64,000 nt of DNA. It comes from Acidobacteriaceae bacterium. GTDB taxonomy: Bacteria > Acidobacteriota > Terriglobia > Terriglobales > Acidobacteriaceae. The notes under the pieces were generated by a model. The model saw only the letters and a program-made list of their open reading frames with translations, was not told where the DNA came from and did no database searches. A program made the position numbers and the translations under genes. The stretch covers positions 23,763 to 87,762 of the forward strand of contig PKXK01000075.1 in assembly GCA_003132325.1 (NCBI GenBank), written 5' to 3'. Below, piece after piece: positions 19,644 to 55,190 of the stretch. Position 1 is the first letter of the stretch; each line of letters starts with the position of its first letter.

Positions 19644-19647
19644 GCGA

Positions 19648-20535: not shown

Positions 20536-20537
20536 GC

Positions 20538-20957: not shown

Positions 20958-21000
20958 GAAGCCAGCGCCTCCTGCGCGTTGCGGCAAGGGACTATTACCA

Positions 21001-21014
21001 ACCAAACGTTTGCT
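21001..21014. promoter_or_regulatory. Operator-like palindrome, copy 2 (ACCAAACGTTTGCT)
   Basis: 13/14 match. It lies 44 nt upstream of the 20957 start and abuts the -10 of the minus-strand promoter. Confidence 0.7.
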
Positions 21015-26236: not shown

Positions 26237-26240
26237 CTTA

Positions 26241-29583: not shown

Positions 29584-29595
29584 GGAGGCTCGCTC

Positions 29596-33458: not shown

Positions 33459-33797
33459 ATGCCAAAAATTGGACAAGGCCTGCTCACTTCCGGCCGCGAA
33501 TGCCAAGGCACGCTGCGCGTCGTGGACACTATTCCGGATGTCCTCCGACTCATGCGGGAGGACCTCTCGGACGTAATCCTCTTCATGCAGTCGGCATCGG
33601 CCACCGCCGCTACTCCGCTTTTTGCGAAGATCAAGGGCATTGTCTGCACTGCCGGTGGGGCCACGTCTCACCTGGCGATCGTCGCACGTGAATTTGATCT
33701 ACCTTGCGTGATGGCCAGCGCGATGGAACACACCAACGGTCTTGACGGCCGCAGAGTCAGACTGAACCAGAAAGGCGAGATTTTTCTCGACAACTGA
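33459..33797 (+). CDS. Stand-alone PEP-utilising-enzyme mobile (phosphohistidine swivel) domain protein
   Basis: 112 aa. ..IKGIVCTAGGATSHLAIVAREFDLPCVM.. is the PEP_mobile signature with the catalytic His. The ATG directly abuts the ligase TGA. Confidence 0.85.
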   Translation: MPKIGQGLLTSGRECQGTLRVVDTIPDVLRLMREDLSDVILFMQSASATAATPLFAKIKGIVCTAGGATSHLAIVAREFDLPCVMASAMEHTNGLDGRRVRLNQKGEIFLDN

Positions 33798-34705: not shown

Positions 34706-34759
34706 AACGGCCGTCAGGTTACTGCCGGCCGAATGACGAAATGCTGGGTGCTAACTCCT

Positions 34760-35686
34760 ATGTCTGAACCTCAACCGCAAGACGACTTCATCCATCCCAC
34801 CGGCGAAGAGCCCACCTGGCGCGAAGCCTGCTATTTTGATTTCTTCGATCCCGCCAGCCGCCTCTCCAGCTTCGGCTACATTGGCGTGCACCCCAACCAG
34901 CAAGTTGGCGACGTCATTTTCGCCCTCTGGCGCGACGACGTTCTTCTCGGCAGCTTCACCCGCTGGGACTTCAACATCCCGCGCGATATCGGCGCAGAGC
35001 GCCTCGGCTTCGGGCATCTCTTCTTCCGGCCGGTCGAGCCGTTCAAAACCTGGGAAATTTATTTCGATGATGGCCGCGTCCGCGTGGACACCACCTTCCA
35101 CGCTATCCATCCCGCCTACTTTTGGGGCCAGTCTCACGGTGCGCTCGAGAAAACCAACAGCCATCACTACGAACAGCAGGGACGCTACACCGGCGAAGTG
35201 CGGGTTGGAGCGGAACGCTACAAAATCGATGGCGTCGGCGTCCGCGACCACGCCTGGGGATGGGGCGCCCGCGCGGGCATCCGCCGCTGGATCTGGGCCT
35301 CCGCGCAGTTTTCCAGCGGCTTTGCTTTCAATACCTTTCTGATTACCCTGGCGGACGGCCGCGAAATTCTATACGGATATATCTGGCGGGGAAAACAGAA
35401 CGAATTGATCCGCCGTTCGACGCTGAAGGCTGAATACGCGCCCAAAGGCCAGGCTCCCGCCGCGCTCACGCTCGCCATGGAAGGCCGCAATGGGGATCGG
35501 GTCAGCGCCACCGCTAGAGTCCTCAATGCCTTCAACACCTCGTTCCAGGAGCGCAACAAGACTGGCTATCACTACTTCGGCGCGGCCAAATTCCAATGCG
35601 AAGGCCAAGTTGGCTACGGACAGATCAACGTGCACTGGCAAAAACAGGAAGACCGTCCGGAAAACTGGACGGTCTCGCAGGAGTAA
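34760..35686 (+). CDS. Conserved hypothetical, unknown family B, copy 1 (beta-rich, RDHAWGWG motif)
   Basis: Paralog of 56766-57701 and 60005-60877 (shared ..EPxWREAxYFxFYD.., ..GxGxRDHxWGxx..W..). The MSEPQPQ start was chosen by alignment to the paralogs; ATG at 34733 is possible. Confidence 0.7.
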   Translation: MSEPQPQDDFIHPTGEEPTWREACYFDFFDPASRLSSFGYIGVHPNQQVGDVIFALWRDDVLLGSFTRWDFNIPRDIGAERLGFGHLFFRPVEPFKTWEIYFDDGRVRVDTTFHAIHPAYFWGQSHGALEKTNSHHYEQQGRYTGEVRVGAERYKIDGVGVRDHAWGWGARAGIRRWIWASAQFSSGFAFNTFLITLADGREILYGYIWRGKQNELIRRSTLKAEYAPKGQAPAALTLAMEGRNGDRVSATARVLNAFNTSFQERNKTGYHYFGAAKFQCEGQVGYGQINVHWQKQEDRPENWTVSQE

Positions 35687-40586: not shown

Positions 40587-41717
40587 TCATTGCGCTGGCA
40601 CCGTCGTCCCCAGCAATTCCTTAATCCGGTCCATACCCTGGAAAGAAGACTTGGCCCGTCCCGGATCCGCGAACGGAGTGATGTTCCACAGCACGAGGTG
40701 ACGCAGTCCTGCAGCCGCCAGCGCGCTCACCTGCTCCGCCACATCCTCCGGCGTGCCATGCAGGGTAAAGTATTCCACCACTTCCCGCGGAACTTTGTTG
40801 ATCACGCGGATGGCATCATGGCGTCCGAAAAGCGAAGGCACATAATCATGGAACCCCGCCGAGCCTTCTCCGAAAGGAGGCTCGTAGCCGAAGCGCTTGA
40901 ACACTTCTCCCGGCAACAGCAGGCAAAGTCCCTTCACCAGCAGGTGATCGAGCAGTTGCGGAATGGCGTTCCGGTCCTCGTCAACCACAACATAAGCCAG
41001 CATCCCAGGTGTTACCGCGTCCACACTGCGTCCGGCTTCCGCGGATGCTTTGCGAATCGCCGCCAGCTTTTCGCCATACTCTGCCGGAGTCATCCTCGTC
41101 GGAAGCCAGCCGTCCGCCAGCTTCCCAGTGATCGTCAGCATCCGCGGGCCGTGCGCCGCAACCCACACCGGAGGCGTCCTGCCTTCATACGGCTCCAGCC
41201 CGAGTACCGCGCCTTCTAACTGAAAATGCTTCCCGTGAAACGAAACCGGATCACCGGCCGACTTCCACAGCAGGCGCAGAACCTGAATTCCCTCTTCGAG
41301 CTTCGAGACAGGCTGGCTGAAGTCAATACCGTAAGGAGTGAGATTGCACTGCTCGCCTGACCCGAGCCCCAGAATCAGCCGCCCGCGGCAGATGTGATCG
41401 AGTGTCAAAGCTGCTTGCGCCAGCATTGCGGGATGCCGCCGCAGGATGTCTGTTACTCCCACGCCTAACTGGATTTTCTGGGTGTTCGCGCCCACCGCGG
41501 ACATCGCCGCAATCGGATCAAAATAGACGTCAGCGCTTTTCTGGTACTTTGCCAGCGGAGTAACATCCGGAGTCCACACCGACCGCGGATGCCATCCCAT
41601 CAGGTGGCAAGGCCACCACGCTGAGTCATAGCCCTTGCTCTCGGCGCGCTGCGCCTGCTGAATCACTTTGTCGAACGGCGGCATGATCCCGCCGGGAACG
41701 CCTAGCTGTATATTCAC
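40587..41717 (-). CDS. Luciferase-like (LLM) flavin/F420-dependent oxidoreductase
   Basis: ..AESKGYDSAWWPCHL.., ..RLILGLGSGE.., ..VWVAAHGPRML..; TIM-barrel LLM pattern. Confidence 0.85.
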   Translation of the reverse strand: MNIQLGVPGGIMPPFDKVIQQAQRAESKGYDSAWWPCHLMGWHPRSVWTPDVTPLAKYQKSADVYFDPIAAMSAVGANTQKIQLGVGVTDILRRHPAMLAQAALTLDHICRGRLILGLGSGEQCNLTPYGIDFSQPVSKLEEGIQVLRLLWKSAGDPVSFHGKHFQLEGAVLGLEPYEGRTPPVWVAAHGPRMLTITGKLADGWLPTRMTPAEYGEKLAAIRKASAEAGRSVDAVTPGMLAYVVVDEDRNAIPQLLDHLLVKGLCLLLPGEVFKRFGYEPPFGEGSAGFHDYVPSLFGRHDAIRVINKVPREVVEYFTLHGTPEDVAEQVSALAAAGLRHLVLWNITPFADPGRAKSSFQGMDRIKELLGTTVPAQ

Positions 41718-41799
41718 AAACGCCCCGATTCGCTTGCGTCTCTATGTGAAACCGTGCCGTTCCAGGCGAAACGCGGAACTGCTATTTGCCTGGACGCGC

Positions 41800-42612
41800 T
41801 CACACCTTGGTCTTGGATCCGCGGAACTCCAGCTTCCGCATGTTCTTCGGATCAATCTTCTTCCTGAGTAACTCGACCTCTTCCACGCTGGGCGCCGGCG
41901 TTTCGGGAACGTCCGCGGGCATCAGCAGTTCGAAACCTGTCTCCTGCTGCACCTCCTTCGGGGTAATCCCGCGGTGCACCGACTTCAGCCGCATGCGCTT
42001 GCTGGTTGGCTCAAAATCCATCACGCAGAGATCGGTCACCACGATCTCCGGCCCGTTGCGCAGTCCCAGCTTCGCCCGCGCATCGCCCCCGGTGAGATAT
42101 CCCGGCGCCGCCAGAAAGTCCACCTTCTCGACGAGGGTCCGCGGGTTGTGGGTGGTGGACCAGATATAGATCCGCTTGTGCAGCGTGCACATGTCGCCCA
42201 TCCCCGCCGAACCCGGCAGACGCACCTTGGGCTTGTGATAATCCTTGCCAATAATGCTGTTGTTCACGTTTCCATACTGGTCGATCTGCGCCCCGCGTAT
42301 GCAGAAAATCTCCAGCGTATTGCGATGCACGTATCCCCACATATCGCCGATCTGCGGCAGGTACATCACGCAGTTCTTCCACATCGTGGGATCGAGCGTG
42401 TTGCCGATAATGTAGCCGGGGTCCGCATCCACGCCCACCGCCCCCGCGACCCAAGTCATTTTCGGGGCATGCGTCTCGCGGGCCAGCATGAACGCTGAGA
42501 CCGGAATATAAGACACAGTACCGTTCAGCATGATGTCGTCATCGGTGAACGCGTGCGCCAGCGTGACCACCATCAGCTCGTCAATCGTGTAGTCCTGCGA
42601 AGTCTTGCCCAT
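41800..42612 (-). CDS. CoA-transferase subunit B (glutaconate-CoA-transferase-like)
   Basis: ..AQIDQYGNVNNSIIG.., ..VEKVDFLAAPG.., ..VMDFEPTSKRMRLKSVHRG... Confidence 0.85.
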   Translation of the reverse strand: MGKTSQDYTIDELMVVTLAHAFTDDDIMLNGTVSYIPVSAFMLARETHAPKMTWVAGAVGVDADPGYIIGNTLDPTMWKNCVMYLPQIGDMWGYVHRNTLEIFCIRGAQIDQYGNVNNSIIGKDYHKPKVRLPGSAGMGDMCTLHKRIYIWSTTHNPRTLVEKVDFLAAPGYLTGGDARAKLGLRNGPEIVVTDLCVMDFEPTSKRMRLKSVHRGITPKEVQQETGFELLMPADVPETPAPSVEEVELLRKKIDPKNMRKLEFRGSKTKV

Positions 42613-42614
42613 GC

Positions 42615-43514
42615 TCAGCTCCAGAAACTCTTAATCCGCAGCAGCGCCTCGGCGCCACCCACCGCCTGCAAATACTCGGTCTGGTTCTTCGGGGCCAGCA
42701 CGTACTTCTCCAGGAATGCGTTGGTGCCGTCCTGCGTGCGCGACTCCGTCGCATACTGTTCCATCACGCTGCGATCAAAGTTGTAGTTGGGAAACAGCGA
42801 GCAAGGATGCGCCCCGTACGGCACATGCACGATCGCATCCACCTTGAAGTAAGGCAGCCCCGTGCGCTCCGGGGTGCGGCGGATTTCCTCGGTATCGACA
42901 ATTTCCTCCACCGTCACGATGACCTTGTTCGAAGCCCGCGGGAACACGTCCACATCTCCCCAGATGGGCTTGGGAAAGAACTGCACATTGCCCAGCGCAT
43001 CGGCCCGGTGCGCATGCAGAATGCACACATCGGGAACCAGAGCCCGGCACGCAATCACTTTCTGCTGCGTAAAAGGACACTCAATTACCTTGGTCGTATC
43101 GGGATGAAGATCGACCACCGCACTCCCCAAGCCGGACTGTGTGACCATGAACGGCAATCCGTACGCGCCCGCACTGAAGCGCGTGAACATCTGGTGCTCG
43201 GTGTACTCCTCCATCGTGACCTGGCCGGCTTCGACCGCGCGACGAAACGCGTTGGCCATGCCGAATTCGTCCAGGTTGACGATGATGGCCATCACTTTGC
43301 TCACGCAGCCGGCCGCGATCAGCCAGTCCAGCCCAATGCCACCGACGACCATTGCGGCTTTCAGATCGCGCTTGCCCGCCCGGATAATTTCGCGCACCAG
43401 CGCCAGCGGACTCATCTGCGTCCCCATGCCCTGGATCGCAAGGGTGTCCCCGTCGCGGATCATGGCCACCGCCTGCGCCGCGCTCATCACCTTGTTTTCT
43501 TTTCTGGCAGCCAT
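42615..43514 (-). CDS. CoA-transferase subunit A (glutaconate-CoA-transferase-like)
   Basis: ..DTLAIQGMGTQMSPLALVREIIRAG.., ..LIAAGCVSK.., ..HAHRADALGNVQ... Confidence 0.85.
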   Translation of the reverse strand: MAARKENKVMSAAQAVAMIRDGDTLAIQGMGTQMSPLALVREIIRAGKRDLKAAMVVGGIGLDWLIAAGCVSKVMAIIVNLDEFGMANAFRRAVEAGQVTMEEYTEHQMFTRFSAGAYGLPFMVTQSGLGSAVVDLHPDTTKVIECPFTQQKVIACRALVPDVCILHAHRADALGNVQFFPKPIWGDVDVFPRASNKVIVTVEEIVDTEEIRRTPERTGLPYFKVDAIVHVPYGAHPCSLFPNYNFDRSVMEQYATESRTQDGTNAFLEKYVLAPKNQTEYLQAVGGAEALLRIKSFWS

Positions 43515-43526
43515 TTCCTCTCCCGT

Positions 43527-44072
43527 TTACTTCTTCTCCCCGGCCAGGCTGTCCACGCGAAATACCTGGCAAGTGTTCTTCAGGTAAGGCATCCAGCGCT
43601 CGCGGTGCTCTTCTTCCGACATCGCCACGTCATCCAACCCTTCCCACCGCGCCCGTTTGCCGATGAGAATCGTGGCCGCAAAACTGACCGCCGCCTGGAA
43701 AATCTCCACCAGGTGAAAGCACCCGGTGTTGCGTCCCACCTTCTCAATAATCCGCCGGCTGATCCCCGGCCCAATCACGTCGCCCTTCAGTTTCTGCACG
43801 TTGTCGAGGGCGTAAGGGCAATACTTCTTGTAGGGCCCCTGCGCCATGGCGGCCGCGACTTCCTCAATGCGGCCGCTCTGAATGTCCACCACCATCTCCG
43901 CCTGGAAGCTGTGCTCCACATCGAGCAGCGAAGCATGCACGCGGAGGTACGTCTTCCCCTCGTCAATCACTTTTACGTTTACGTTGCGTTCGTGAATCTT
44001 GGGCAACGACGAACGGTCGTTGCTGGCATCGGCCAGGATCAGTGGCATGGGCTGCGAAGGCCTGTCACTCAT
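43527..44072 (-). CDS. Hypothetical protein (tentatively DUF2889-like); first gene of its operon
   Basis: 181-aa ORF with RBS GGGAGGAAG. The ..VGRNTGCFHLVEIFQAA.. motif resembles the GC(T/F)HL motif I associate with DUF2889. The assignment is tentative. Confidence 0.55.
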   Translation of the reverse strand: MSDRPSQPMPLILADASNDRSSLPKIHERNVNVKVIDEGKTYLRVHASLLDVEHSFQAEMVVDIQSGRIEEVAAAMAQGPYKKYCPYALDNVQKLKGDVIGPGISRRIIEKVGRNTGCFHLVEIFQAAVSFAATILIGKRARWEGLDDVAMSEEEHRERWMPYLKNTCQVFRVDSLAGEKK

Positions 44073-44092
44073 GGCAATCTTCCTCCCGACCT

Positions 44093-44106
44093 ACCAAACG
44101 CTTGTT
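44093..44106. promoter_or_regulatory. Operator-like palindrome, copy 4 (ACCAAACGCTTGTT)
   Basis: 12/14 match. It lies 21 nt upstream of the 44072 start and abuts the -10. Confidence 0.65.
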
Positions 44107-44134
44107 TTGTAACAGATCGTGAGGATTAGGTCAA
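44106..44134 (-). promoter_or_regulatory. Sigma70-type promoter TTGACC-17-TACAAA
   Basis: The minus strand reads TTGACC taatcctcacgatctgt TACAAA, followed by ACAAGCGTTTGGT. Confidence 0.5.
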
Positions 44135-44151
44135 TACAACTCTAGCCGGAA

Positions 44152-44910
44152 TCATGCCCGCCTGCCACCATCCACGCGAATCACCTGGCCGGTGATATAC
44201 GCCGCCTCCGCCGAAACCAGAAACAGCACCGCCGCAGCCACCTCTGCCGGCAAGCCCGTGCGTCCCAGGGCGCTCTCGCTCATCTTTTCCTGAATGTACT
44301 CTGGAGTCACGAAACGGCTCTGCATCTCCGTCGCGATCGAACCCGGCGACACCGCATTGACGGTCACGCCCCACTCTCCAAGCACCCGCGCCAATCCGCG
44401 CGTGAAAGTCCCCACCCCGCCTTTCGCCGCCGCATAAGGCAAGGTCCCAGGACTCCCGCCCGCCGCTGCCCCGATCGACGAAATATTGACGATCCTTCCC
44501 CAGCCCCGCTGCTTCATCGCCGGAATCGCCGCCTGCGCACAAAGAAACACGCTCCGCAGGTTCACCGCCAGCACACGATCCCAAAGCTCAGCGGTCCATT
44601 CTTCGATCGGTTGGCTGGCAACCGGGTCGGCCGCATTGTTGACCAGGATGTCGACTCCGCCCGCGTGTTCGCCGATCTGGGCAAACATCCAACGAACCGC
44701 TCCCGGGTCGGAAACATCGGCGCCATGCGTCCAGGCATGGCCGTTGGCGTCTTGGATCGCTCGCAGAGTCTGCCCGGCTCCGTCTTCATTCTTGCGGAAG
44801 TTGACCACCACCTGCGCGCCGCTCGCCGCCAGTGCAATCGCAATCGCCCGTCCGATCCCCGAACTCGCCCCGGTCACCAGCGCGACCTTACCCTCAAGCT
44901 CCACCCGCAT
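44152..44910 (-). CDS. SDR-family oxidoreductase (FabG-like)
   Basis: TGASSGIGRAI, NNAA, YAAAKGG. Confidence 0.9.
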   Translation of the reverse strand: MRVELEGKVALVTGASSGIGRAIAIALAASGAQVVVNFRKNEDGAGQTLRAIQDANGHAWTHGADVSDPGAVRWMFAQIGEHAGGVDILVNNAADPVASQPIEEWTAELWDRVLAVNLRSVFLCAQAAIPAMKQRGWGRIVNISSIGAAAGGSPGTLPYAAAKGGVGTFTRGLARVLGEWGVTVNAVSPGSIATEMQSRFVTPEYIQEKMSESALGRTGLPAEVAAAVLFLVSAEAAYITGQVIRVDGGRRA

Positions 44911-44925
44911 GGTGGCTCCGATCCG

Positions 44926-45486
44926 TCAACGGGCCGGTTCGCCTCCGCCCGCATGCGGCAACGGACATGCGTACTCGACCTGGAAAACGGAATTGAACTT
45001 CTGAAACCCGGTGACGATGGCGAAATAGCAGCCCAGTTCGACTATCTCGGGATCGCTAAAGTGCTTGTGCAACAGCGCCAGCGTTTCTTCGTCGATTCGT
45101 CCCCACGAGCGGAACGCATGCCAATCCGCCAACTTCAAAATCGCTTTCTCCCGCTCGCTAAATGCAGGGGAATCCCAGTAATGATCGATGTCGTCGACTT
45201 TCTGTTGCGGAATGTTGTTTCGTCTGGCCCAGACGATGTTTGCGATTTTTCAATACTCGCAGCTATTCAACCGCGCCATCCGCAGCCGAGCCAACTCCTT
45301 CGTCTCCGATTCCACCCGCCCGTTCAGGCAGGACATATAGAAGTCGTTAAACTTCCGGAAAATCTCCGGAACGTGTGCCATGAACGCCGAGTACACGGAA
45401 TCCCCGATCCATTCCTGGTACATCTCCATGGTCTGCCGAATGTCGGGTTCCATCTTCTCCGGCGGCACTAGCGGTAAAACTGGCAT
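44926..45486 (-). CDS. AhpD/carboxymuconolactone-decarboxylase (CMD) family protein with in-frame TGA at 45250-45252 (candidate selenocysteine, C-E-Y-U), or a recent pseudogene
   Basis: ATG at 45486 follows AAGGAGG (5-nt spacing). It reads MPVLPL...RLRMARLNSCEY-TGA-KIANIVWARRNNIPQQKVDDIDHYWDSPAFSEREKAILKLADWHAF...GGEPAR. The two ORF-track pieces (45250-45942 tail and 44926-45138) are in the same frame with no other stop. The total of 186 codons fits the CMD family. Confidence 0.6.
45221..45235 (-). other. Hairpin 14 nt downstream of the in-frame UGA (candidate bacterial SECIS core)
   Basis: The mRNA reads UGA-AAAAUCGCAAACAU-CGUCUG-GGC-CAGACG, a 6-7 bp stem with a G-rich apical loop. Confidence 0.35.
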
Positions 45487-45506
45487 ACGACCTCCTTGAA
45501 TTGGCG

Positions 45507-46532
45507 TCAGCGGAACGCCGGCATCACTTCCTTGCCCCACAGTCTGAGGCAGTCGAGCACTTTCTCCCGCGCCGGTCCGCCGGGCAGGCGGAAGCGCATG
45601 ATCAAGTAGTCTACGTCGTAATCGCGCCCATACATCTGCGCCTGCCGAATGCAATCCTCCGGCGTGCCGGTAATGAAATGTTTGCGCGCCCGCTCGCGCG
45701 TGAAATCCGACTCCTTCTGGAACTCGGGATGATGCGTGAGAATCCCCCAGTGAAAATAGAATAGCCACTCCTGGATCGCGAGATCGAGAAAAACCTCGTC
45801 CGACTCTTCCCTGCGCGGTGAAACCCACCCATCGCGCATCAGCACGACCGTGGATTTGTTTCCGTGCTTCTTCGCTTCCTCGCGATAAATTCGCACCTGC
45901 TCGTTCCACACCTTGGGATCGAGCGGAAACGGATCGCTGCACCAGGCATCGCCCATTCGTCCCGCGCGGGCGATCGTCTTCGGGAACATCCCGCCCACCC
46001 AGATCTCCGGCCTCGGCTGCTGATAAGGCTTTGGTGTCAAACGAACATCTTTGAGATTCCAGAACTTCCCTTCATAAGAGAACTTGTCCTGGGTCCACGC
46101 CCGCATCATGATCTCGTAGGACTCCTCAAAGCGCGCCCCGCGCTCCTTGTAGGGAACGTCCACGAATTCCTGATATCCCGGGTGATACCCGGAGGCAATC
46201 CCCACAATGACTCGCCCATGGGACAGGTGATCGATCATGGCGAACTGTTCCGCCAGATGCATGGGGTTGTAGAGCGGCGGGATGCAGATGTAAGTGCCCA
46301 GCCGGGCGTTTGATGTGCGCGTGGCAAGGGTGGAAAGCAAGATCAAAGGCGACGGAAACATGCACTCGGTTCGCCCGTGCCGCTCCGGCACAACAATGGA
46401 GTGAAAGCCGCCCGCCTCGGCCAGGTCGGCTTCCTGCAGCAAATGATCGACAAACGCGCTCGTCTGATCGCGGCTTGGAGGCGGCTGATCGTAAGGCCCG
46501 CCATGGGTGTCCAGCAGATATCCGATCTTCAT
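45507..46532 (-). CDS. Luciferase-like (LLM) oxidoreductase
   Basis: Start MKIGYLLDTHGGPYD... Close paralog of 47989-49032. ..VIVGIASGYHPGY.., ..IWVGGMFPKTIARAGRMGDAW... Confidence 0.85.
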   Translation of the reverse strand: MKIGYLLDTHGGPYDQPPPSRDQTSAFVDHLLQEADLAEAGGFHSIVVPERHGRTECMFPSPLILLSTLATRTSNARLGTYICIPPLYNPMHLAEQFAMIDHLSHGRVIVGIASGYHPGYQEFVDVPYKERGARFEESYEIMMRAWTQDKFSYEGKFWNLKDVRLTPKPYQQPRPEIWVGGMFPKTIARAGRMGDAWCSDPFPLDPKVWNEQVRIYREEAKKHGNKSTVVLMRDGWVSPRREESDEVFLDLAIQEWLFYFHWGILTHHPEFQKESDFTRERARKHFITGTPEDCIRQAQMYGRDYDVDYLIMRFRLPGGPAREKVLDCLRLWGKEVMPAFR

Positions 46533-46543
46533 TCTTTTACCTG

Positions 46544-47578
46544 TCAGGAAAAATGGGAGATCACTTTCTCTCCCCACATGCGAATGCACTTCATCGTGCG
46601 TTCGTGATCCGGTCCCGTAGGATGCCGGAAGTAGCACACGATGTATTCACTGCCCACCGTTTCCCGGTAGCGTTCCACCTCTTCGATCACCTGCGAGGGC
46701 GTGCCGGCGATGTCGCGATTCGGAGCAATCCGCTCGAAGGTCCACTCCTCGTCCTTGATGGTGCGTACCCACGGCTCCCATTCGGTATTGAATCGCCCCG
46801 ACTCAAAGAACCCGAGATTCTTGTAGAACAGGTGCATGGCCCTCAGCCCCGGCCACCACACCTCCTCGACCTCTTTCCGTGTCTCGGCCACCCAGCAATC
46901 CCGGATCAGCACGGCTTCCGTCTTGTTGCCGTGGGTCGCTGCTTCCTTGCGGTAAATGTCCGCCCACGCCTTCATGACGTTGATGTGGTGCAGGGGATCG
47001 GAAATCCAGCCATCACCCAGGCGAGCGGCCCGCTTTAACGCCGGCTCCGACATGGCCCCGATCCAGATCGGGGGGTGCGGCTTTTGCACCGGGCGCGGCG
47101 TGATGCCCACATTTTCGTAGTGATGAAATTTTCCGGAATAAGAGAATTGGTTCTGCGACCAGGCCTGGCGGATCACCTGCACCTGCTCGTTGAACAGCGG
47201 AGCGGCATCCTTGATGTTCCTGCCGAAGAGCTTGAACTCCGGCTCGACCAGCCCCAAACCGACTCCCAGGATGGAGCGCCCGCGGGAGATGTTGTCGAGC
47301 ACCGCCCATTCTTCCGCGATATGGATCGCATCCCATTCGGGCAACTGCAGAATCGAGGTCCCCAGCCGGATCTTTTTCGTCCGGCTGGCGATCGCAGCCA
47401 GCAGCACCGCCGGCGCCGGGAGATACCCGTCGGGCATCATGTGATGTTCGGGTACGAACACCGAGTCGAAGCCGACGGCTTCCGCTAGTTCCGCCTCGCG
47501 CAACACTTCTTCGTACAGACGCGCGATATTACGCCCGTCCGGCGGATCCTGCGTGTTGACCAGCATGCCGAACTTCAC
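46544..47578 (-). CDS. Luciferase-like (LLM) oxidoreductase
   Basis: MKFGMLVNTQDPPDGRN.., ..SILGVGLGLVEPEF.., ..IWIGAMSEPALKRAARLGDGW... Confidence 0.85.
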   Translation of the reverse strand: MKFGMLVNTQDPPDGRNIARLYEEVLREAELAEAVGFDSVFVPEHHMMPDGYLPAPAVLLAAIASRTKKIRLGTSILQLPEWDAIHIAEEWAVLDNISRGRSILGVGLGLVEPEFKLFGRNIKDAAPLFNEQVQVIRQAWSQNQFSYSGKFHHYENVGITPRPVQKPHPPIWIGAMSEPALKRAARLGDGWISDPLHHINVMKAWADIYRKEAATHGNKTEAVLIRDCWVAETRKEVEEVWWPGLRAMHLFYKNLGFFESGRFNTEWEPWVRTIKDEEWTFERIAPNRDIAGTPSQVIEEVERYRETVGSEYIVCYFRHPTGPDHERTMKCIRMWGEKVISHFS

Positions 47579-47663
47579 TCAGGGCATCTCCAACCAAGGA
47601 GGGTGGGAAACTTGCCTGGCCTGTCAAAACCGAATCTCGCATCAGAATCCGACTGGCGTACCA

Positions 47664-47677
47664 AACAAACGTTTAGT
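47664..47677. promoter_or_regulatory. Operator-like palindrome, copy 5 (AACAAACGTTTAGT)
   Basis: 12/14 match. It lies 86 nt upstream of the 47578 start. A TTTAAT -10-like hexamer sits just upstream on the minus strand; there is no good -35. Confidence 0.6.
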
Positions 47678-47702
47678 TGATTAAACATCGCGCCTATTCT
47701 CA

Positions 47703-47731
47703 GCCGAAAACCGGCCCAAGTCAAGCCGGTT
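47703..47731 (-). terminator. Rho-independent-type terminator after the 47989-51215 operon
   Basis: The minus strand reads AACCGGC-ttgacttgg-GCCGGTT followed by TTCGG (four Ts counting the stem end): a 7-bp GC-rich stem with a 9-nt loop. Confidence 0.45.
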
Positions 47732-47988
47732 ACGCCCTAATTGGAATGTCCCGAAACGGTACCTCTGAAGGCTTGACTCCTGCTGTCTCGCACGCGGGCC
47801 ACGCGGGAGTGCCCTGATCCCGTTTTCTGCGGCATCGGCAGAACGTTCCCTTTCTACGGCGAACGGACCCCCCCTCCACTCACCCTTGCTTCGCAGACTT
47901 GGGCACCTCCGGTTTGTCTCACTACACCTTACCAGGGGACAACGGGTCACTACCCGCCTGAGCCCGGGACAAATCGAAACATGGGCTG

Positions 47989-49032
47989 CTATACCGCTGT
48001 GCCCCTCTGGCGGAAGTGCGGCAGCACTTCCTTTCCGAACAGACGCACCGCGTCCAGAACCTTCTTGGGCTCGGGCCCCTGTGGGAACCGGAATCGCAGG
48101 ACAAAGTAGTCCGCCCCGAAGTCCCGTTCATACATCTCCAGTTGGCGGATGCAGTCCTCGGGCGTGCCCGTTACGTAATGCTTGCGCATGCGGTCGGGCG
48201 TGAAGTCCGCCTCGGTCTTGAAGTCTGGGTGATGCGCTACGATGCCGAAACGGAAGTAGAACAGGAGTTCCCGAATGGCTTCTGACAGGAAGACTTCATC
48301 GGCCTCCTCGCGGCGCGGGCTGACCCACGCATCACGCATCAGCACCACCTGCGAGGGCCGCCCCTGTTCGGCGGCGGATTTCCGGTAGAGATTCACCTTC
48401 TCCCGCCAAACCACCGCATCCAGGGGAAACGGATCCGTGCACCACCCGTCACCCAGCCGCCCGGCCCGCGCGATAGTCTTGGGAAACATGCCGCCCAGCC
48501 ACAACTCTGGGCGCGGCTTCTGGAACGGGGTGGGCGTGAGCAGGACGTCCCGATACTGGAAGTACTTCCCTTCAAACGTGAAGCGCTGGCCGCTCCATGC
48601 CTTTTCCAGCACCTCCATGCCCTCTTCGAAGCGTCCGCCGCGCTCCTCGAACGGCACGCCGAAAAACTGGTTGTATCCGGGATGGTAGCCCGACGCCACC
48701 CCCAGGATGACGCGTCCCCGCGAGAGGTGATCAATCATGGCCACCTCCTCCGCGACGTGCATCGGGTTGTACAGGGGCAGGATCAGGATGTAGGTGCCCA
48801 GCCGGATGCGCGAAGTGCGTACGGCCATCGCCGCCATCAGCGTCAGTACGGAGGGGAACAGCGTCTCGGTCCGTCCGTGGCGCTCGCCCCACAGAACGGA
48901 GTCGAAGCCCGCCTCTTCCGCCGCCGTGGCCTCGCGGAATAACTGGTCGGTGAACGCACCCACGCGCTCGCGGTTCGGAGCGGGCATGTCGTAAGGGCCG
49001 CCGTGGGTGTCCAGGAACAGGCCGACCTTCAC
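47989..49032 (-). CDS. Luciferase-like (LLM) oxidoreductase
   Basis: GTG start directly after the upstream stop. (M)KVGLFLDTHGGPYDMPAPNRE.. Paralog of 45507-46532. Confidence 0.85.
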   Translation of the reverse strand: MKVGLFLDTHGGPYDMPAPNRERVGAFTDQLFREATAAEEAGFDSVLWGERHGRTETLFPSVLTLMAAMAVRTSRIRLGTYILILPLYNPMHVAEEVAMIDHLSRGRVILGVASGYHPGYNQFFGVPFEERGGRFEEGMEVLEKAWSGQRFTFEGKYFQYRDVLLTPTPFQKPRPELWLGGMFPKTIARAGRLGDGWCTDPFPLDAVVWREKVNLYRKSAAEQGRPSQVVLMRDAWVSPRREEADEVFLSEAIRELLFYFRFGIVAHHPDFKTEADFTPDRMRKHYVTGTPEDCIRQLEMYERDFGADYFVLRFRFPQGPEPKKVLDAVRLFGKEVLPHFRQRGTAV

Positions 49033-49722
49033 CTAGGCTTTCTCCCGAAACGCCGCCGACTGCTGGATCTGGACCATATCTCCCTCATGTCCCCTTACGT
49101 GGATCCGGTGGCGGCACGACTGCCCGCCGTGCAGGGACGACTCCAGTTCTTTGACCTCGACCCGCACGTCCTCACCGGGAAACTTCTCGAAGAGCACCTC
49201 GAACCACGCGGCGGTGCACTCACAGCGGTTCGTGTGCGACGAATCCTGGATGCTCACGTGCCGGTGCGCGATCAGCGGACATGCACACCCGCCGGTGGTC
49301 GCATCGCTCAGAAAAGTCTGCGGGTCTTTCACGACGCAGTGGCTCCCGCCCCACATCTGCTCCAGGTATCGCACGTAGGCGTTGAACCACGATTGAATGC
49401 TCGCACCGTCGTAACCGAACTTTGCCGCCAGATTCTTGTCGAATACGCCCTGGCACGAGCGCGCTCCATGCTTGTACACCTGGTGCGCGACCGACGTCGG
49501 CACCAGATCCAGGCCGTTCATCACGCCCTCGAGATGCTTGACCCGCAGGGCGCGCGGATCGCTGGCCGGCAGCTTGCACACGTGCTCCTCGGCGAAGCCC
49601 AGCACCCGTTGGCGGCTGGCGGGGTCGATTTCCAGCAGTCCTCGCTCCAAGGATGCCAAGTAATCCAGCACCCACTCCAGTGGCACGTCGCGGGCCGTCG
49701 CACTGACCTTCACTTCCTCCAT
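49033..49722 (-). CDS. Cys-rich hypothetical protein
   Basis: 229-aa ORF contiguous with the downstream LLM gene. It contains ..TTGGCACPLIAH.., ..NRCECTAAWFEVLFEKF.., ..GGQSCRHRIHV... It faintly resembles ATC-hydrolase-family C-termini, but this is not secure. Confidence 0.55.
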   Translation of the reverse strand: MEEVKVSATARDVPLEWVLDYLASLERGLLEIDPASRQRVLGFAEEHVCKLPASDPRALRVKHLEGVMNGLDLVPTSVAHQVYKHGARSCQGVFDKNLAAKFGYDGASIQSWFNAYVRYLEQMWGGSHCVVKDPQTFLSDATTGGCACPLIAHRHVSIQDSSHTNRCECTAAWFEVLFEKFPGEDVRVEVKELESSLHGGQSCRHRIHVRGHEGDMVQIQQSAAFREKA

Positions 49723-49753
49723 GGTTTCCTCTCTCCAGCCGGACTTCCCATGC

Positions 49754-50698
49754 CTATAGCACGAACTTTGTCCCCACGCTGTTCTGGACGAACGCCTCGG
49801 GCATCTCCCGTGCGATGGTGTGGATCGCCTTCCATCCCGTGCAGTGCCCGGGGGCGATCAGCACCGGGTTCAGCGCCTTAAGCTCGTTGAGCGTGTCGGG
49901 AATAATCGGATCGAAAGCCGGGCCCGACAGGTGGAAACCGCCAATCACCGCGCACACCCGGTCCACGCCGCTGATCTTGCGCGCGTGGCGGATGGTATTG
50001 ACCACTCCGGCATGGCCGCAGCCGGTCAGGATGACCAAGCCCTTGTCCTTCAGGTTCATGACCACCGCCTGGTCATCATGCACGCTGGGATCCGACTGCC
50101 ATTGCCCGCCGTCAAATGCGAAGTGGAACGGCAGACCCTTCTCGAAAGTTGTGGTTCGCTCGATCTGCCCCGTCACCAGCGCAAGACCGCCAAGGACGTA
50201 GCTAGCTTTGCGGTCTTCGACGAAGTCGATACCCTCCTGGCCCAGGCTCTGACGATCTGGAGGGGGCAACACAATCTCCCGTCCGTCGGGAAAACACACC
50301 TTCCTCTGCATCCCGGCATCGGGATGGAGCAGCATTGGCAGCCGACGGCTTCCAAGACGCTTGGCCAGTCCCATCAGCCCGTTGGAGTGATCGGCGTGTC
50401 CATGACTGAGCACGATAGCGTGCAGTTCATGGGCCTTGATTCCGAGGACGTCCATGTTGTGGGTCAGTCCACCCCAGCTCAACCCTGCGTCAAACAGGAA
50501 CGATTCCCGGCGATCACCCGACTCCACCGTCACCAGCGCTGAGAAGCCGTGCTCCGCAACCAGTGTGTCGGAAAGGAAGAAATCTCGCTGAAGAACGTAC
50601 CGCTTGACCGTGTCCGTGCTGGGCAACAGCACGTCTACCATGTTATCGAGGATGGTCGTGATCTCGACCTTGTCGGCCAACTTTAACTCCCCCGTCAT
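49754..50698 (-). CDS. MBL-fold metallo-hydrolase
   Basis: ..ITTILDN.., ..EHGFSALV.., ..IVLSHGHADHSNGL.. (HxHxDH), ..LTGCGHAG... Confidence 0.85.
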   Translation of the reverse strand: MTGELKLADKVEITTILDNMVDVLLPSTDTVKRYVLQRDFFLSDTLVAEHGFSALVTVESGDRRESFLFDAGLSWGGLTHNMDVLGIKAHELHAIVLSHGHADHSNGLMGLAKRLGSRRLPMLLHPDAGMQRKVCFPDGREIVLPPPDRQSLGQEGIDFVEDRKASYVLGGLALVTGQIERTTTFEKGLPFHFAFDGGQWQSDPSVHDDQAVVMNLKDKGLVILTGCGHAGVVNTIRHARKISGVDRVCAVIGGFHLSGPAFDPIIPDTLNELKALNPVLIAPGHCTGWKAIHTIAREMPEAFVQNSVGTKFVL

Positions 50699-50801
50699 TC
50701 GTCGTGCCCTGCCTTCCTCTGCGCGAACTGTTCGTCGAGCGCAGGAATGGGATATCTTTCGCCGTCACTGCCTGGGGCAAGTCATCCGTGCCACGCGCGT
50801 G

Positions 50802-51215
50802 TTACGACTTCCCGGGTAATCCCCCGAGCATCTGCAGAACCTTCGCGCTGTCGTAAACGATCCACAAACGCTTGATCAGCCCGCTCTCGACCGTGAACAC
50901 ATCCACGGCATCGAACACAACGTCGCGTCCGGTATTGGTCGTTCCTTTAAAGTGGATCTGCGCGGCCACGGTGCCGTCCGCGCTGTGGAACCAGCGCGTG
51001 ATTTCGTCGTGCCGCTTGACGTAAAACTTGAATACATCGGCGTAGAAAGCGGCCACATTCGCTCTTCCGATGACCGGCTCTCGCGCAGGAAAGTGGACCT
51101 CGGCGTCCTCGGCAAAGGCTTTGGCTATCGCCGCGGTGCTTTCGGCATGAACGGCGTCGAAGTAGGCTTTGGCGGCGGCCTCGGCCGAGCCGCGTTGAGT
51201 GGATGTCTGCGTCAT
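50802..51215 (-). CDS. NTF2/SnoaL-like fold protein (paralog of 38607-39005)
   Basis: Start MTQTSTQ follows RBS GAGGGA. ..AKAYFDAVHA.., ..VVFDAVDVFTVESGLIKRLWIVYDSAKVLQMLGGLP... Confidence 0.75.
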   Translation of the reverse strand: MTQTSTQRGSAEAAAKAYFDAVHAESTAAIAKAFAEDAEVHFPAREPVIGRANVAAFYADVFKFYVKRHDEITRWFHSADGTVAAQIHFKGTTNTGRDVVFDAVDVFTVESGLIKRLWIVYDSAKVLQMLGGLPGKS

Positions 51216-51244
51216 GTGTTCCCTCGGAAATTCGCTGTGGCCAG

Positions 51245-51273
51245 AATCTACCAAACGTTTGTCTTGTTGTCAA
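51245..51273 (-). promoter_or_regulatory. Sigma70-type promoter TTGACA-17-TAGATT
   Basis: The minus strand reads TTGACA acaagacaaacgtttgg TAGATT, about 30 nt upstream of the 51215 start. Confidence 0.55.
51250..51263. promoter_or_regulatory. Operator-like palindrome, copy 6 (ACCAAACGTTTGTC)
   Basis: 12/14 match. It lies inside the 17-nt spacer of the promoter at 51245-51273. Confidence 0.65.
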
Positions 51274-51316
51274 GAAATGCGAAGTCGTGCCTGCTCGGTA
51301 ACGCCCTCAGAGGGCC

Positions 51317-51823
51317 TCAGCCGCTTGCCTTTTCCACCCGGAACATCTTTTCCCCATCGAAGGTCCGCATCTTCTCCACGTGCACAATCAGAACCAGACG
51401 ATCCGGGCTCAGATAGCGTTGAATTTCCTTCTCCTGCTGCGCCGGGGGGAAAGGTTTCAGCGCATTGGCCACGGTTGCTTCTGCCCACCGTCGCACCGTT
51501 TGTGGATTTTCGCAGAACTCCACCCTGCCCCGAATCGTAACCTGTTTCAGTCCGCTGCCCTGGAAACAGATGGAAATCGCCGGGTTCCGGCGCAGCGCCT
51601 TCACCTTGTCCCGGTTGCGGGTTGAGGTCAGCATGATCGTGCCCTCGATCACGGCGTAGGCCATCTCGCACACCACCGGCTCACACGCCCTGGTCACCCA
51701 GCCGATCACGCACTTCCACGGAGGCCCGTCGATGATCCGCCAGGCCTCTTCCTCCGAGAGCACGAACGAGTCGAGATACTGGCGTATCCACCAGGACGGA
51801 TGAGGCGCATCGTCAGACTTCAT
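51317..51823 (-). CDS. Pyridoxamine-5'-phosphate-oxidase-like split-barrel protein (PPOX/FDOR class, possibly F420- or FMN-dependent)
   Basis: ..IMLTSTRNRDKVKALRRNPAISICF.., ..VTIRGRVEF.. match the PPOX-class pattern. Confidence 0.7.
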   Translation of the reverse strand: MKSDDAPHPSWWIRQYLDSFVLSEEEAWRIIDGPPWKCVIGWVTRACEPVVCEMAYAVIEGTIMLTSTRNRDKVKALRRNPAISICFQGSGLKQVTIRGRVEFCENPQTVRRWAEATVANALKPFPPAQQEKEIQRYLSPDRLVLIVHVEKMRTFDGEKMFRVEKASG

Positions 51824-51898: not shown

Positions 51899-54800
51899 TT
51901 AGAAGACCAGCTTCAGGCTGAACTGAATCTCCCGCGGCACTCCGTCGGTGGTGCTGATCACTCCTACCTGCGGCGACGAGAGGTTCGAGTTCGGCAAACT
52001 GAAATTGGCGTGGTTTGCGATGTTGAAGAAATCCGTCCGGAACTGCAGGTTCGTGCTCTCGGTGAGCCGGAAGACTTTCGCCACCGAGGCATCGATCTGC
52101 GCGAATCCGGGACCGATCACCGGGGTACGGGAAGCGGTACCGATATGACCGGCCGCTGGCGTGGTGAAAGCGCTAACGTCGAAATATTCGTTTACCCCGC
52201 CCAGAACCGGGTTGGGGCGGGAGATATTCGGGCGATCTGGAAAATCAATGTAGTCGCCGATACCGCTAGCGTCGGTGCCCAATAGTACGGAGAATGGCTG
52301 ACCGGTCTGTGCCGACCCCAGCGAGCTGACGTTCCAACCTCCGAGTAGCGCATCCACTACGCCGTTGGCGCTGTCCAGATGTTTCCGTCCTTTGCCGAAC
52401 GGGAGTTGGTAGGTCACACTCTCGGTGAACCTTTGCCTCCGGCTGAACGCCGATTCGGAGCGATCCAGGCGAATATTGGCGGGATAGAGACTGGCCTGGG
52501 CCACTCCTGTCAGAATGTTAGAGGAATTGTAAGCGTCAGATTCGGAAATATTTTTCGCCCAGGTGTAACTAGTCTGGAAGTTCACGGCGCCCACCGCGCG
52601 GGACAGCTTCACTGTCCCCCCGTTGTACAGCGCGTTGGTATCATACCGCCGGGAGTACAGAGAGAAACCCACCCCGGCTTGAACGAATCCAGGCGCCCCG
52701 GTCGGCGGATTTGGTGCGGCGCACCCGCTTGCCGGAAAAACGGGAAAGCCGTTGCTATCGAGCACTGGATGCGCATCTCCGCCGCACGGCTGGTTGTAGT
52801 TGGCTTCCAGTTTCCGTGGCAGGTGCCACGACTGAGAACCCGTGTATGTAAGTTCCAGGCTCATGCGCCCTGGGAGTTCCCGTTCCACGCCGAAACTCCA
52901 CTGCTGCGTAGTAGGAGAGTTCATCGGTTCGAGCACACCGGTAATCAGCCCCGGGAACGGACTTGGCGCCGTGCAAGTGGCGCATGTCGGAAACTGCCCC
53001 ACTGGTCCAAAGAAGGTGTTCAAAACCGGCTGCGGATTGTTCCATTGCAGAATGCCCTGTGCCAGCCCGGCGAAATCCACGAAGTCATTAAAGATTCCGT
53101 ACCCCATCCGGAATACGGTTTTGCCGTCCCCGAAGGGATCGTAGGCAAACCCCACCCGGGGTTGAAATTGGGTTAAGGAATAATTGTTGTAGGGCACGCC
53201 CACATGCACGGAGGTTGCGTACGGCGATTGCCAGCTCCCCAACTGATTGTGTGCGTCCGAAAGAACCGGAATCTGCAAATCGTGGCGGATCCCGAAGTTG
53301 AGCGTCAGTTTGTGGGTAACGCGGAAAACGTCGTTGACATACCACGCAAGCGGCGTCGTGCGCGCATTGAAATGACTGGGCGGACCGTCGCGATGGATCA
53401 GAGTGACCGTGGGCGCGCCCTGCAACAGCGTAGTGAGGTCAGAGAAAGTGTAGCTGCCGCCCGGGATAGTAGCCGATGACCAGTTCCACTGGATGCGTTC
53501 CACCATGCCGCCAATAGCGATCGTGTGCTTGCCATGGACCCATAACAGGTCATCGTTGAAGGGCACAACGTTCTTCGCCTCGGTAAACGGACTGGCATCG
53601 TCGTTACCTAACAACGACAGACTTCCACCCGAGGTCCCCGCGCTGCCGTTACCCACTGTGATCACGCCAATAGTTTGCCTGGCAGGATTGCCGGTGTATT
53701 GATCGGACTGGAGTTGCACCGTGGGGTTCGTGCTGGAATTGAGGAACTGCCTGAGCAGACTCACGCTGGCCGTATTGACCAGGCTGGAGCTGATGGTGCG
53801 GCTCCACTTGACCAGAACGTTTTGGTCGCGGTCGAAGCGATTGAACTGGAAGTCGGGAAGATTGAATGCTTGCGTGGCGCTGGCATCCACGATCTGGTAA
53901 CGGAATTGGAGTTGGTCCTTGGAGGTCAATGCGTGAGTGAGGTTTGCCACCCCGAAATCCTGCCGTGTAGGTTGGTGGTTGGCGAACGCAGCCTCAGCGA
54001 TACCGGAGGCGGGGAAGGAAGGAAGCGAAGGCGACGGATCGGGGAACAGTGCCAGCAAGGGCAGAACTGCAGGCACGAGTCCGGGCACAGGCACACCGTT
54101 GATATTGCCAATACGCGCTCCCGCATCGGGCACAAAAGCAATGTTGGTGGTGTTCAGACTTTGCCGCAACCCCTCGTAGTTGATGAAGAAGAAGGTCCGG
54201 TCCTTCACGATTGGACCGCCTAACGTGCCGCCGAATTGGTTGCGTTTGAAGGCGGGCTTGTAGGGCGAGCCATCGGCATTGAAATCGAAGTACGACCGGG
54301 AATCAAAGATGTCGTTTCGCAGGTACTCGTACACATTCCCGTGAAACTTGTTGGTCCCGGTTTTGGTCGCAAACGTCACTACTGCCGCCCCCGCTCCGCC
54401 ATACTCCGCGCTGTAGTTGTGGCTCAGCACTTTGAATTCCTGGATTGCTTCCACACCCGGCATATCGCCCGCCGCTGCGGTTCCCGGCGCCGTCAGGCTG
54501 CCATTCGAGAAGTTCACGCCGTCCATCAAGTACGCGACCGAACTTCCCATCGACCCATCGGCAGAAATATAGGACCCCGTGTTCGTGGCCGCGCTCAATA
54601 CGCTTGGCGGCGGCGTGCTGGTGATCTGCACCAAGCCTGGCTGCTGTGTTACCAGCGCCGTAAAGCTGCGCTGGTTCAGCGGCAGGTCCTGCAGTTGCTG
54701 GGTCTGAACCACGTTGGAAACTTCGGACTCCGTGGTCTGCACCGTGACTTCTTCGGCGTTGACTTCCACCGTCTCGGTGACTTGGCCGACATTCAGTGCG

Positions 54801-55144: not shown

Positions 55145-55190
55145 AGCCACTCTCCCGGGGGCAGTCGATCGGATTCGCAAAACAATGCTT

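Follow-up and report, generated by a model that had tools for sequence, protein, structure and literature searches.

Selenoproteins with a CxxU motif in the AhpD/carboxymuconolactone decarboxylase (CMD) superfamily have been catalogued since 2005, under the names AhpD-like (COG2128), AhpD-like 2, CMD domain-containing (PF02627), and distant AhpD homologs (PMC1088965, PMC2398784, PMC13188914). Two relatives that carry cysteine at the corresponding positions serve as references for the active site. In PA0269, a "proton relay" has been described that consists of Glu36, Cys48, Tyr50, Cys51, and His55, the last being described as invariant; the true gamma-CMD enzymes are devoid of a redox C-x-x-C (PMC3141380). 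In the AhpD of Mycobacterium tuberculosis, Cys133 is exposed and attacks AhpC, and Cys130 is partly buried (PMC6626918). Here, we analyse a stretch of 64,000 nucleotides from an Acidobacteriaceae bacterium (contig PKXK01000075.1), called the window in what follows, in which an original prediction had placed a gene of this superfamily at positions 44926 to 45486, with an in-frame TGA in place of the second Cys of the CxxC motif. Our results argue strongly that this codon, UGA79, encodes selenocysteine (Sec) in an AhpD-like redox protein of the CMD fold.

The gene lies on the minus strand, and the analysis of its reading frame involves the following features:

44926..45486, minus strand: complete gene of the proposed selenoprotein, of the CMD/AhpD fold and with the motif C76-E-Y-U79, recognised from its translation, the Pfam CMD domain, its relatives in the PDB, and its orthologs.
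45250..45252, minus strand: in-frame UGA, the proposed codon of Sec79, which aligns with the second Cys of C-x-x-C and is a TGA in 25 distinct orthologous genes.
45259..45261, minus strand: TGC codon of Cys76, the first Cys of C-x-x-U, invariant in the family.
45491..45497, minus strand: Shine-Dalgarno sequence AAGGAGG, separated by a 4-nt spacer from the ATG at 45486-45484.

The frame reads MPVLPL...ARLNS-C76-E-Y-[TGA 45252-45250]-KIANIVWARRNNIP..., with K-I-A-N-I-V-W after the TGA, and meets no further stop until the terminal TGA at 44928-44926. It thus has 186 sense codons (78, the Sec codon, and 107), and the N-terminus MPVLPL is kept in the orthologs. The original prediction had described this same frame, from the ATG at 45486 behind an AAGGAGG ribosome binding site, through the TGA at 45250-45252, to the end at 44926, and its coordinates and sequence proved correct. 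It had also stated that automatic gene finding splits the gene, which is indeed the case: a mechanical open reading frame (ORF) finder gives one piece at 45250..45942 and another of 70 aa at 44926..45138, and public gene callers working on the identical sequence give two ORFs of 78 and 70 aa. The genetic code is not reassigned, since TGA serves as the regular terminator in 32 of the 56 genes of the window. A screen of the 64 kb for other in-frame TGA candidates returned only gene boundaries and antisense frames.

We searched for relatives among 5.8 billion proteins, in a set of genomes with one genome per species, and in metagenomes, where 15 loci were retained. The protein search gave three full-length homologs with C-L-Y-C (63-65% identity) and three closer relatives that start exactly two codons after the column of the TGA; in the DNA of the latter, an ORF of 78 codons is followed by an in-frame TGA in just that column. 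The TGA is present in all nine acidobacterial species genomes, which are metagenome-assembled genomes (MAGs) of Acidobacteriaceae, Terriglobales, and Terriglobia from Danish soils, SPRUCE peat, and the bog and palsa of Stordalen, and whose proteins are 97-54% identical to that of the window. It is also present in 14 of the 15 metagenome loci, including a distant clade at 47-52% identity, the remaining locus being a Cys form (C-E-N-C). In total, this makes 25 distinct orthologous genes with the TGA, down to 47% protein identity. The comparison of TGA with Cys among orthologs, proposed together with the original prediction, thus shows that this strain is no exception. The window itself matches no species genome exactly: its DNA has its best identity, about 90%, with two Acidobacteriaceae MAGs from Danish soil and 88% with a SPRUCE peat MAG, and several public metagenome assemblies contain contigs with 100% identity to it. 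The ratio of non-synonymous to synonymous substitution rates (dN/dS), computed on the window and loci L001, L002, and L004, is about 0.09 on either side of the TGA, and dS is nearly saturated. The half of the gene downstream of the TGA has therefore been translated in the same frame throughout the divergence of these lineages.

With the stop replaced by Cys, the protein matches the Pfam CMD domain (PF02627) over residues 40-121 with 31.2 bits, for a cutoff of 23. It stays far below the cutoffs of its best NCBIfam matches, the models NF053654 ("YciW-related (seleno)protein", 57.6 versus 310 bits) and TIGR01926 ("peroxidase-related enzyme", 44.5 versus 81.8 bits), and the NCBIfam scan reported no match at E<=0.1 to the AhpD-type selenoprotein models NF041047 and NF041238. 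The predicted assignment to the AhpD/CMD selenoproteins stands as far as the CMD superfamily is concerned, where a CxxU family is established, but the protein remains below the cutoffs of the curated AhpD-like selenoprotein models. It forms a separate and narrow CMD subfamily that lies outside those models. The PcaC model of gamma-carboxymuconolactone decarboxylase was not among the NCBIfam matches of the protein; together with the conserved C-x-x-U, this sets the protein apart from PcaC proper.

The closest solved structures are those of PA0269 (2ijc/2o4d/7xw1) and Atu0492 (2gmy), with E about 1e-8. The N-G-C-A-Y-C of PA0269 aligns directly onto N-S-C-E-Y-[TGA], and the column of the TGA is that of the second Cys in the CLYC of the full-length homologs P0001-P0003, in the CNNC of the homolog P0009, and in the CAYC of PA0269. 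The alignment thus places the TGA exactly where it had been predicted. The fold was studied on the AlphaFold model of P0001, a Cys homolog with 65% identity that stands in for the window protein. The model is all-helical, with a predicted local distance difference test (pLDDT) score of 70 overall and 75-92 in the core, and its 34 top matches in the PDB, found with Foldseek, are all members of the AhpD/CMD family, with a target template modelling (TM) score of about 0.8 to 2gmy and 2ijc. The relay residues of PA0269 map to Glu64, Cys76, Tyr78, U79, and Asn83. The C-x-x-C and the relay Glu thus have their counterparts in the window protein, but the His expected four residues after the second Cys (His55 in PA0269, His137 in the AhpD of M. 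tuberculosis) is replaced by Asn83 (AAC, 45238-45240), and this Asn is invariant in all Sec and Cys members of the subfamily. The position of the attacking Cys is the one where Sec normally replaces Cys. Because the second Cys of M. tuberculosis AhpD (Cys133) is the exposed attacking residue, Sec79 would be at the position of the nucleophile; the "resolving" role that had been given to the second Cys in the original prediction was wrong.

Downstream of the TGA, the mRNA can form a short hairpin, delimited by folding and comparative pairing:

45220..45236, minus strand: core of a putative bacterial selenocysteine insertion sequence (SECIS), with a 7-bp stem UCGUCUG/CAGACGA and a GGC apical loop.

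A hairpin CGUCUG-GGC-CAGACG had been predicted at 45235-45221; it is real, but one U-A pair longer, which makes 7 bp and extends it to 45236-45220. The stem starts 13 nt after the UGA, the distance from the UGA to the loop is 20 nt, and the hairpin is 17 nt long. Together with the TGA column, it recurs in the 25 distinct orthologous genes, which exceeds what chance would give. The published model of the bacterial SECIS (bSECIS) has a loop of 3-9 nt, an upper stem of 4-16 bp, a G in the first two loop positions, a distance of 16-37 nt from the UGA to the loop, and a free energy of -7.5 kcal/mol or lower (PMC13188914). The window hairpin falls within each of these limits, with a 3-nt GGC loop that starts with G-G, 7 bp, 20 nt, and -7.7 kcal/mol.

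The hairpin falls within the conserved peptide V/A-W-A-R-R, so its conservation alone proves little, and the Cys homologs are the decisive control. These encode V-V-W-A-R by GTG-GTG-TGG-GCx-CGC and have no hairpin; forcing one costs +11 to +14 kcal/mol. The TGA forms, on the other hand, all use xTC-GyC-TGG-GCC-AGr-CGA, including the rarer Arg codons AGA and AGG, and their hairpins range from -6.1 to -9.8 kcal/mol. In the 22 distinct sequences used for the statistics of pairing and of the codons that follow the TGA, 98.7% of the cells form a standard pair, versus 14-44% after a shift of the 3' partners by 1-3 columns. At the fourth pair of the stem, 12 sequences have U-A and 10 have C-G, no mismatched intermediate occurs, and the outer pair shows one switch from U-A to C-G. 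The compensating changes are non-synonymous on the 5' side (Val to Ala, Ile/Val to Thr) and synonymous on the 3' side (AGA to AGG, CGA to CGG). The compatibility with a bacterial SECIS that had been claimed is thus borne out: the hairpin agrees with the published model, it covaries, and it is absent from the Cys forms. Separately, we observed that the metagenome locus with the Cys form C-E-N-C (L032:1-363, contig Ga0075521_10087923) has a different 6-bp hairpin in the register of the SECIS, CUUCUU-CGCCA-AAGAAG, which encodes F-F-A-K-K. It may represent a remnant or a forerunner of a SECIS, or else a coincidence of Phe and Lys codons.

An exhaustive profile search of 1.84 billion representatives, made with the 109 C-terminal columns so that the estimate of family size refers to that half of the protein, gave 290 matches at E<=1e-3 and 5 at E<=1e-10. 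The closest matches are fragments starting just after the U column and one full-length Cys form. In a quick and crude neighbour-joining tree, the Cys forms P0001 and P0002 branch inside the Sec clade (93 of 100 bootstraps), and the Cys form P0009 is basal, with the outgroups. This topology suggests one gain of Sec from Cys, together with its SECIS, followed by a reversion from Sec to Cys in which synonymous changes may have erased the hairpin and kept the peptide V-V-W-A-R.

What else could account for an in-frame TGA in this gene? The TGA is not a sequencing error, because three independent assemblies, built from different sequencing runs, agree at 100% over the 561-nt gene; as it also recurs in dozens of other assemblies, we give an artefact in the window no credence. 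The original prediction had considered a very recent nonsense mutation from TGC or TGT, which would have left a pseudogene, dead or restricted to a truncated product of 78 residues. A single base change suffices for this, and the gene callers do annotate two fragments. However, the TGA is shared by all 25 orthologs despite their divergence, synonymous sites are saturated where dN/dS is about 0.09 downstream, and the conserved hairpin is specific to the TGA forms. Since the downstream half has been translated in frame during this divergence, a recent mutation is ruled out, and the chances of a pseudogene are vanishingly small. A gene split into an N-terminal peptide of 78 residues and a re-initiated C-terminal polypeptide that would then assemble is very unlikely. 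In its favour, an AAGG-like purine run leads to a GTG two codons past the TGA in 5 of the 22 sequences, and the gene callers start ORFs at this GTG (P0004-P0006). Yet the codon at this position is ATC, GTC, TCC, or GCx in the other 17, none of which is a start codon. In the window, it is ATC, and the next in-frame start is a TTG at 45138, 38 codons downstream, so the restart is not conserved. Starting there would lose a strongly conserved stretch (ANVVWARRNNIP...DHYWDS) on which purifying selection acts, and the split would cut the C-x-x-C motif exactly at the catalytic residue.

The UGA might also be read through without selenium, by a near-cognate or suppressor tRNA, such as a tRNA-Cys(UCA) of the selC* type or an allo-tRNA, which would put Cys, Ser, or Trp at position 79 and make of the hairpin a SelB-like or general stimulator of read-through. 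Acidobacteria have allo-tRNAs that resemble tRNA-Sec and are possible nonsense suppressors (Mukai et al., PMC5389517), selC* tRNA-Cys(UCA) genes occur with a dedicated SelB* in other phyla (PMC5389517), and for this genome the support for the Sec machinery stops at the level of the family. Against this, the same study did not report selC* from Acidobacteria, and all its genomes with selC* also have a full Sec system (PMC5389517). Furthermore, the hairpin fits the Sec-specific bSECIS model, the position is a typical Sec/Cys pair, and the family has many known Sec members. If Cys were inserted, a TGC would serve without the cost of a stop codon, and yet the TGA and the hairpin are kept across a deep divergence. 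We therefore consider selenium-free decoding, including this view of the hairpin, unlikely. It accounts, with the question of the Sec machinery, for most of the doubt that we attach to Sec at position 79.

Several observations count against the decoding of UGA79 as Sec and against the redox role discussed below. Pfam annotation of essentially all the genes in the 64-kb window revealed no SelA, SelB, or SelD, and selA, selB, selC, and selD were not found in the flanks of roughly 20 kb of 11 related loci. The hairpin is minimal, at 17 nt, has no bulged U of the kind found in Escherichia coli fdhF, and lies within a conserved peptide. Its covariation is limited to two pairs, and the independent events behind it probably number no more than two or three. 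The ortholog L006 has a G-U closing pair and, at -6.1 kcal/mol, falls short of the threshold of -7.5. The folding z-score of the SECIS region of the window taken as a single sequence is unremarkable (-0.95), so the evidence for the hairpin is only comparative. No relevant Rfam family was found, either in a scan of the whole window at gathering thresholds or in a scan of 45100-45330 at E<=10; Rfam is not known to include a general model for bacterial SECIS elements. Finally, no peroxiredoxin gene is nearby, and the neighbouring luciferase-like (LLM) oxidoreductases look like enzymes of the F420 type, not peroxide-generating ones.

The support for the Sec machinery in this genome comes, at the family level, from the literature. 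Four selenoproteins have been counted in Acidobacteria (Zhang et al. 2006, PMC1794560), and the deep-Sep paper (PMC12013277, Table 2 and Data S1) includes Occallatibacter riparius DSM 25168 among the Sec-utilising organisms and assigns three selenoproteins to it, namely FdhA, an AhpD-like protein with C-P-Y-U, and a deiodinase-like protein. As this documented Sec user belongs to the Acidobacteriaceae, like the window, its example shows that decoding of Sec occurs in the lineage. The search for tRNA genes with ARAGORN gave none in the window and only a tRNA-Met in the 11 related loci.

Taking these elements together, we infer the insertion of Sec, the binding of SelB, and the chemistry of the protein along the following lines. 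The 17-nt hairpin located 13 nt past the UGA would act as a SECIS and bind SelB carrying Sec-tRNASec, as in the standard bacterial pathway. SelB would then deliver Sec-tRNASec to the ribosome paused at the UGA, in competition with release factor 2. In the protein, Sec79 would occupy the exposed attacking position, which corresponds to Cys133 in M. tuberculosis AhpD and to Cys51 in PA0269, and would cycle with Cys76 through a selenenylsulfide, with Glu64 and Tyr78 of the relay retained and Asn83 in place of the His. The 186-residue product would thus be a thiol/selenol oxidoreductase.

The proposed selenoprotein gene (Sec-CMD below) is part of a long series of genes in the same orientation, all the genes from 38.6 to 55.2 kb being on the minus strand. 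Its closest neighbours are:

45507..46532, minus strand: LLM oxidoreductase, upstream of Sec-CMD (Pfam Bac_luciferase; nearest NCBIfam model TIGR03619, below cutoff).
44152..44910, minus strand: short-chain dehydrogenase/reductase (SDR) oxidoreductase, downstream, which starts 15 nt after the stop of Sec-CMD.
43527..44072, minus strand: DUF2889 protein, a conserved downstream partner that directly follows Sec-CMD in loci L011-L013.
41800..43514, minus strand: CoA-transferase in two subunits (A, 42615-43514; B, 41800-42612), conserved in the gene string.

The upstream LLM gene, whose start at 46532 is that of the public gene call, stops 20 nt before the start of Sec-CMD and is adjacent to it in all the orthologous loci of the main clade. 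The SDR gene is found in most orthologous loci and is absent from L011-L013. Given the gaps of 20 nt to the LLM and of 15 nt to the SDR, Sec-CMD is probably co-transcribed with both. A scan for promoters and terminators between 38 and 52.5 kb did no better than on shuffled sequence. All nine genomes and the close metagenome contigs keep a string of genes that runs from a pyridoxamine phosphate oxidase-like (PNPOx-like) gene to a SnoaL-like gene: PNPOx-like, LLM, LLM, [Sec-CMD], (SDR), DUF2889, CoA-transferase A/B, LLM, SDR, (SDR), SnoaL-like.

More broadly, the window is a catabolic island, with thiolases, ChsH2-like proteins, acyl-CoA dehydrogenases, several pairs of CoA-transferase genes, electron transfer flavoprotein (ETF), hydantoinase/acetone-carboxylase-like genes, acyl-CoA ligases, and a large outer-membrane barrel of the TonB type. 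In the distant TGA clade (47-52% identity; L025, L029, L026-L031, L033), the immediate neighbours are different: Sec-CMD lies between the gene of an outer-membrane protein (OMP) barrel (OMP_b-brl_4) and a trio of genes for a glyoxalase-fold protein, an amidohydrolase_2, and an enoyl-CoA hydratase. In the window, this trio is found about 25 kb from Sec-CMD, at 18846-21005, and an OMP of the same type about 6 kb from it, at 51899-55180. The association of Sec-CMD with this set of genes has therefore survived rearrangement.

Other features of the window were recorded along the way. The LLMs are nearest to TIGR03619, the class of F420-dependent LLMs, whose cutoff is passed by the protein at 46544-47578. 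The LLM and PNPOx-like genes (40587-47578; 51317-51823) are closest to F420-dependent classes, TIGR03618 being below cutoff, a hint that this acidobacterium may carry out redox chemistry linked to F420. The window and the contigs 100% identical to it contain a block of about 3.75 kb (47578-51336) that the closest genomes (L005, L006, and L008) do not have; in these, the PNPOx-like and LLM genes flanking this site are about 150 nt apart. The block contains an LLM (47989-49032), a protein of 229 aa with no Pfam match (49033-49722), a metallo-beta-lactamase (MBL)-fold protein (49754-50698), and a SnoaL-like protein (50802-51254), which suggests an insertion into the operon specific to this strain. 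At 27433-31887, genes for hydantoinase A and B with an acetone-carboxylase gamma domain stand beside an acyl-CoA ligase and a split phosphoenolpyruvate (PEP)-utilising enzyme. The latter is in two ORFs, one with the mobile domain (33459-33797) and one with the PEP-binding domain (33797-34705), and a protein with PPDK_N and mobile domains is found at 61001-63682. The regions 27433-34705 and 61001-63682 resemble ATP-dependent carboxylase or phosphorylating systems for ketones or phenolics. We also noted three paralogous DUF7065+DUF7064 proteins (34733-35686, 56766-57701, and 60005-60877) and two ORFs without a Pfam match (25070-27452) immediately upstream of the hydantoinase genes.

This context bears on the possible role of the protein. 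A role as adaptor of AhpC was dropped, as no peroxiredoxin gene lies nearby, and a peroxide-scavenging role tied to the neighbouring LLMs was downgraded, as these look F420-type. As a working guess, which we hold tentatively, Sec-CMD may reduce a hydroperoxide, or else an oxidised thiol or disulfide partner that the catabolic pathway produces. A more speculative idea, and in our view a rather doubtful one, is that it could be a dedicated catalytic or redox-relay part of a conserved acidobacterial catabolic pathway, acting on an intermediate or a cofactor, instead of a general antioxidant. The gene set of this pathway would consist of the OMP importer, the F420/flavin LLMs, the CoA-transferases, and the trio of glyoxalase-fold, amidohydrolase_2, and enoyl-CoA hydratase genes. 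What leads to this proposal is that Sec-CMD accompanies the same gene set in two clades with different immediate neighbours. If it were true, the selenol and the change of His to Asn would mark a new enzymatic use of the AhpD fold, comparable to the Cys-based reductive dehalogenation of Bmp8.

All the public records that we examined either break the gene into two short hypothetical ORFs or give just its C-terminal fragment. This annotation would be corrected in many genomes of peat and soil Acidobacteriaceae by a new family model that bears a selenoprotein flag. A selenium-dependent protein within a catabolic operon of these abundant peatland bacteria would imply a need for selenium in part of their carbon metabolism in acidic soils, and the family would offer a compact natural experiment in the gain and loss of SECIS. 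We regard these results as a sound correction of annotation and a tidy case of SECIS evolution; they overturn no current understanding and will not surprise a specialist of selenoproteins.

How does the locus compare with the systems already described? The SECIS can be set against that of E. coli fdhF, whose minimal functional form, as Liu et al. reportedly found in 1998, is an upper stem-loop of 17 nt placed 11 nt from the UGA. Both are short hairpins directly 3' of the UGA in the coding sequence, of similar size and spacing and with a G at the start of the loop, but the window hairpin has no bulged U and its loop, a putative SelB site, is GGC instead of the GGUC type. The nearest proteins by both sequence and structure are PA0269 and Atu0492, small AhpD-like proteins with a weak peroxidase activity, Glu36 and Tyr50 of PA0269 corresponding to Glu64 and Tyr78; they have Cys instead of Sec and about 145 aa, without the N-terminal extension of roughly 55 residues of the window protein. 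The AhpD of M. tuberculosis, a reductant of AhpC via lipoamide and DlaT, has in common with it the C-x-x-C on a conserved helix-turn-helix, where Cys133 occupies the Sec position. The topology of its chain is different, however, and the window protein is without the relay His; Pfam annotation identified no AhpC/peroxiredoxin or lipoamide-system gene near Sec-CMD. The tetrabromopyrrole debrominase Bmp8 (6ohi/6ohj), with its catalytic Cys, is a more distant relative that has the CMD fold and gives a structure match and a weak sequence match (E=0.0016). Nothing indicates halogenated substrates for the window protein, but since Bmp8 does such chemistry, the CMD fold is capable of redox reactions on small-molecule pathway substrates.

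Among the selenoproteins, the AhpD-like protein of O. riparius (COG2128/TIGR01926 type, CPYU) belongs to the same bacterial family and the same superfamily and has Sec in the same column. It is only 20% identical to the window protein and keeps the relay His at +4 (U-L-D-S-H), where the latter has Asn. The marine AhpD-like 2 and CMD domain-containing CxxU proteins of Zhang and Gladyshev (Sargasso Sea 2005, Global Ocean Sampling [GOS] 2008), which we compared by their description, also belong to PF02627, with Sec at the second Cys, Cys homologs, and a small SECIS loop containing G just downstream. By that same comparison, and unlike them, the window protein comes from Acidobacteriaceae of peat and soil, forms a narrow subfamily, and is part of a conserved catabolic operon. 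As judged from its sequence, the window gene would work like the catalogued CxxU proteins, which are of the same superfamily. Three traits set it apart from them: its scores are below the cutoffs of the curated subfamily models, the relay His is missing, and it belongs to a narrow clade tied to a catabolic operon. The type of selenoprotein has thus been known for 20 years; what is new is the subfamily, which is routinely misannotated.

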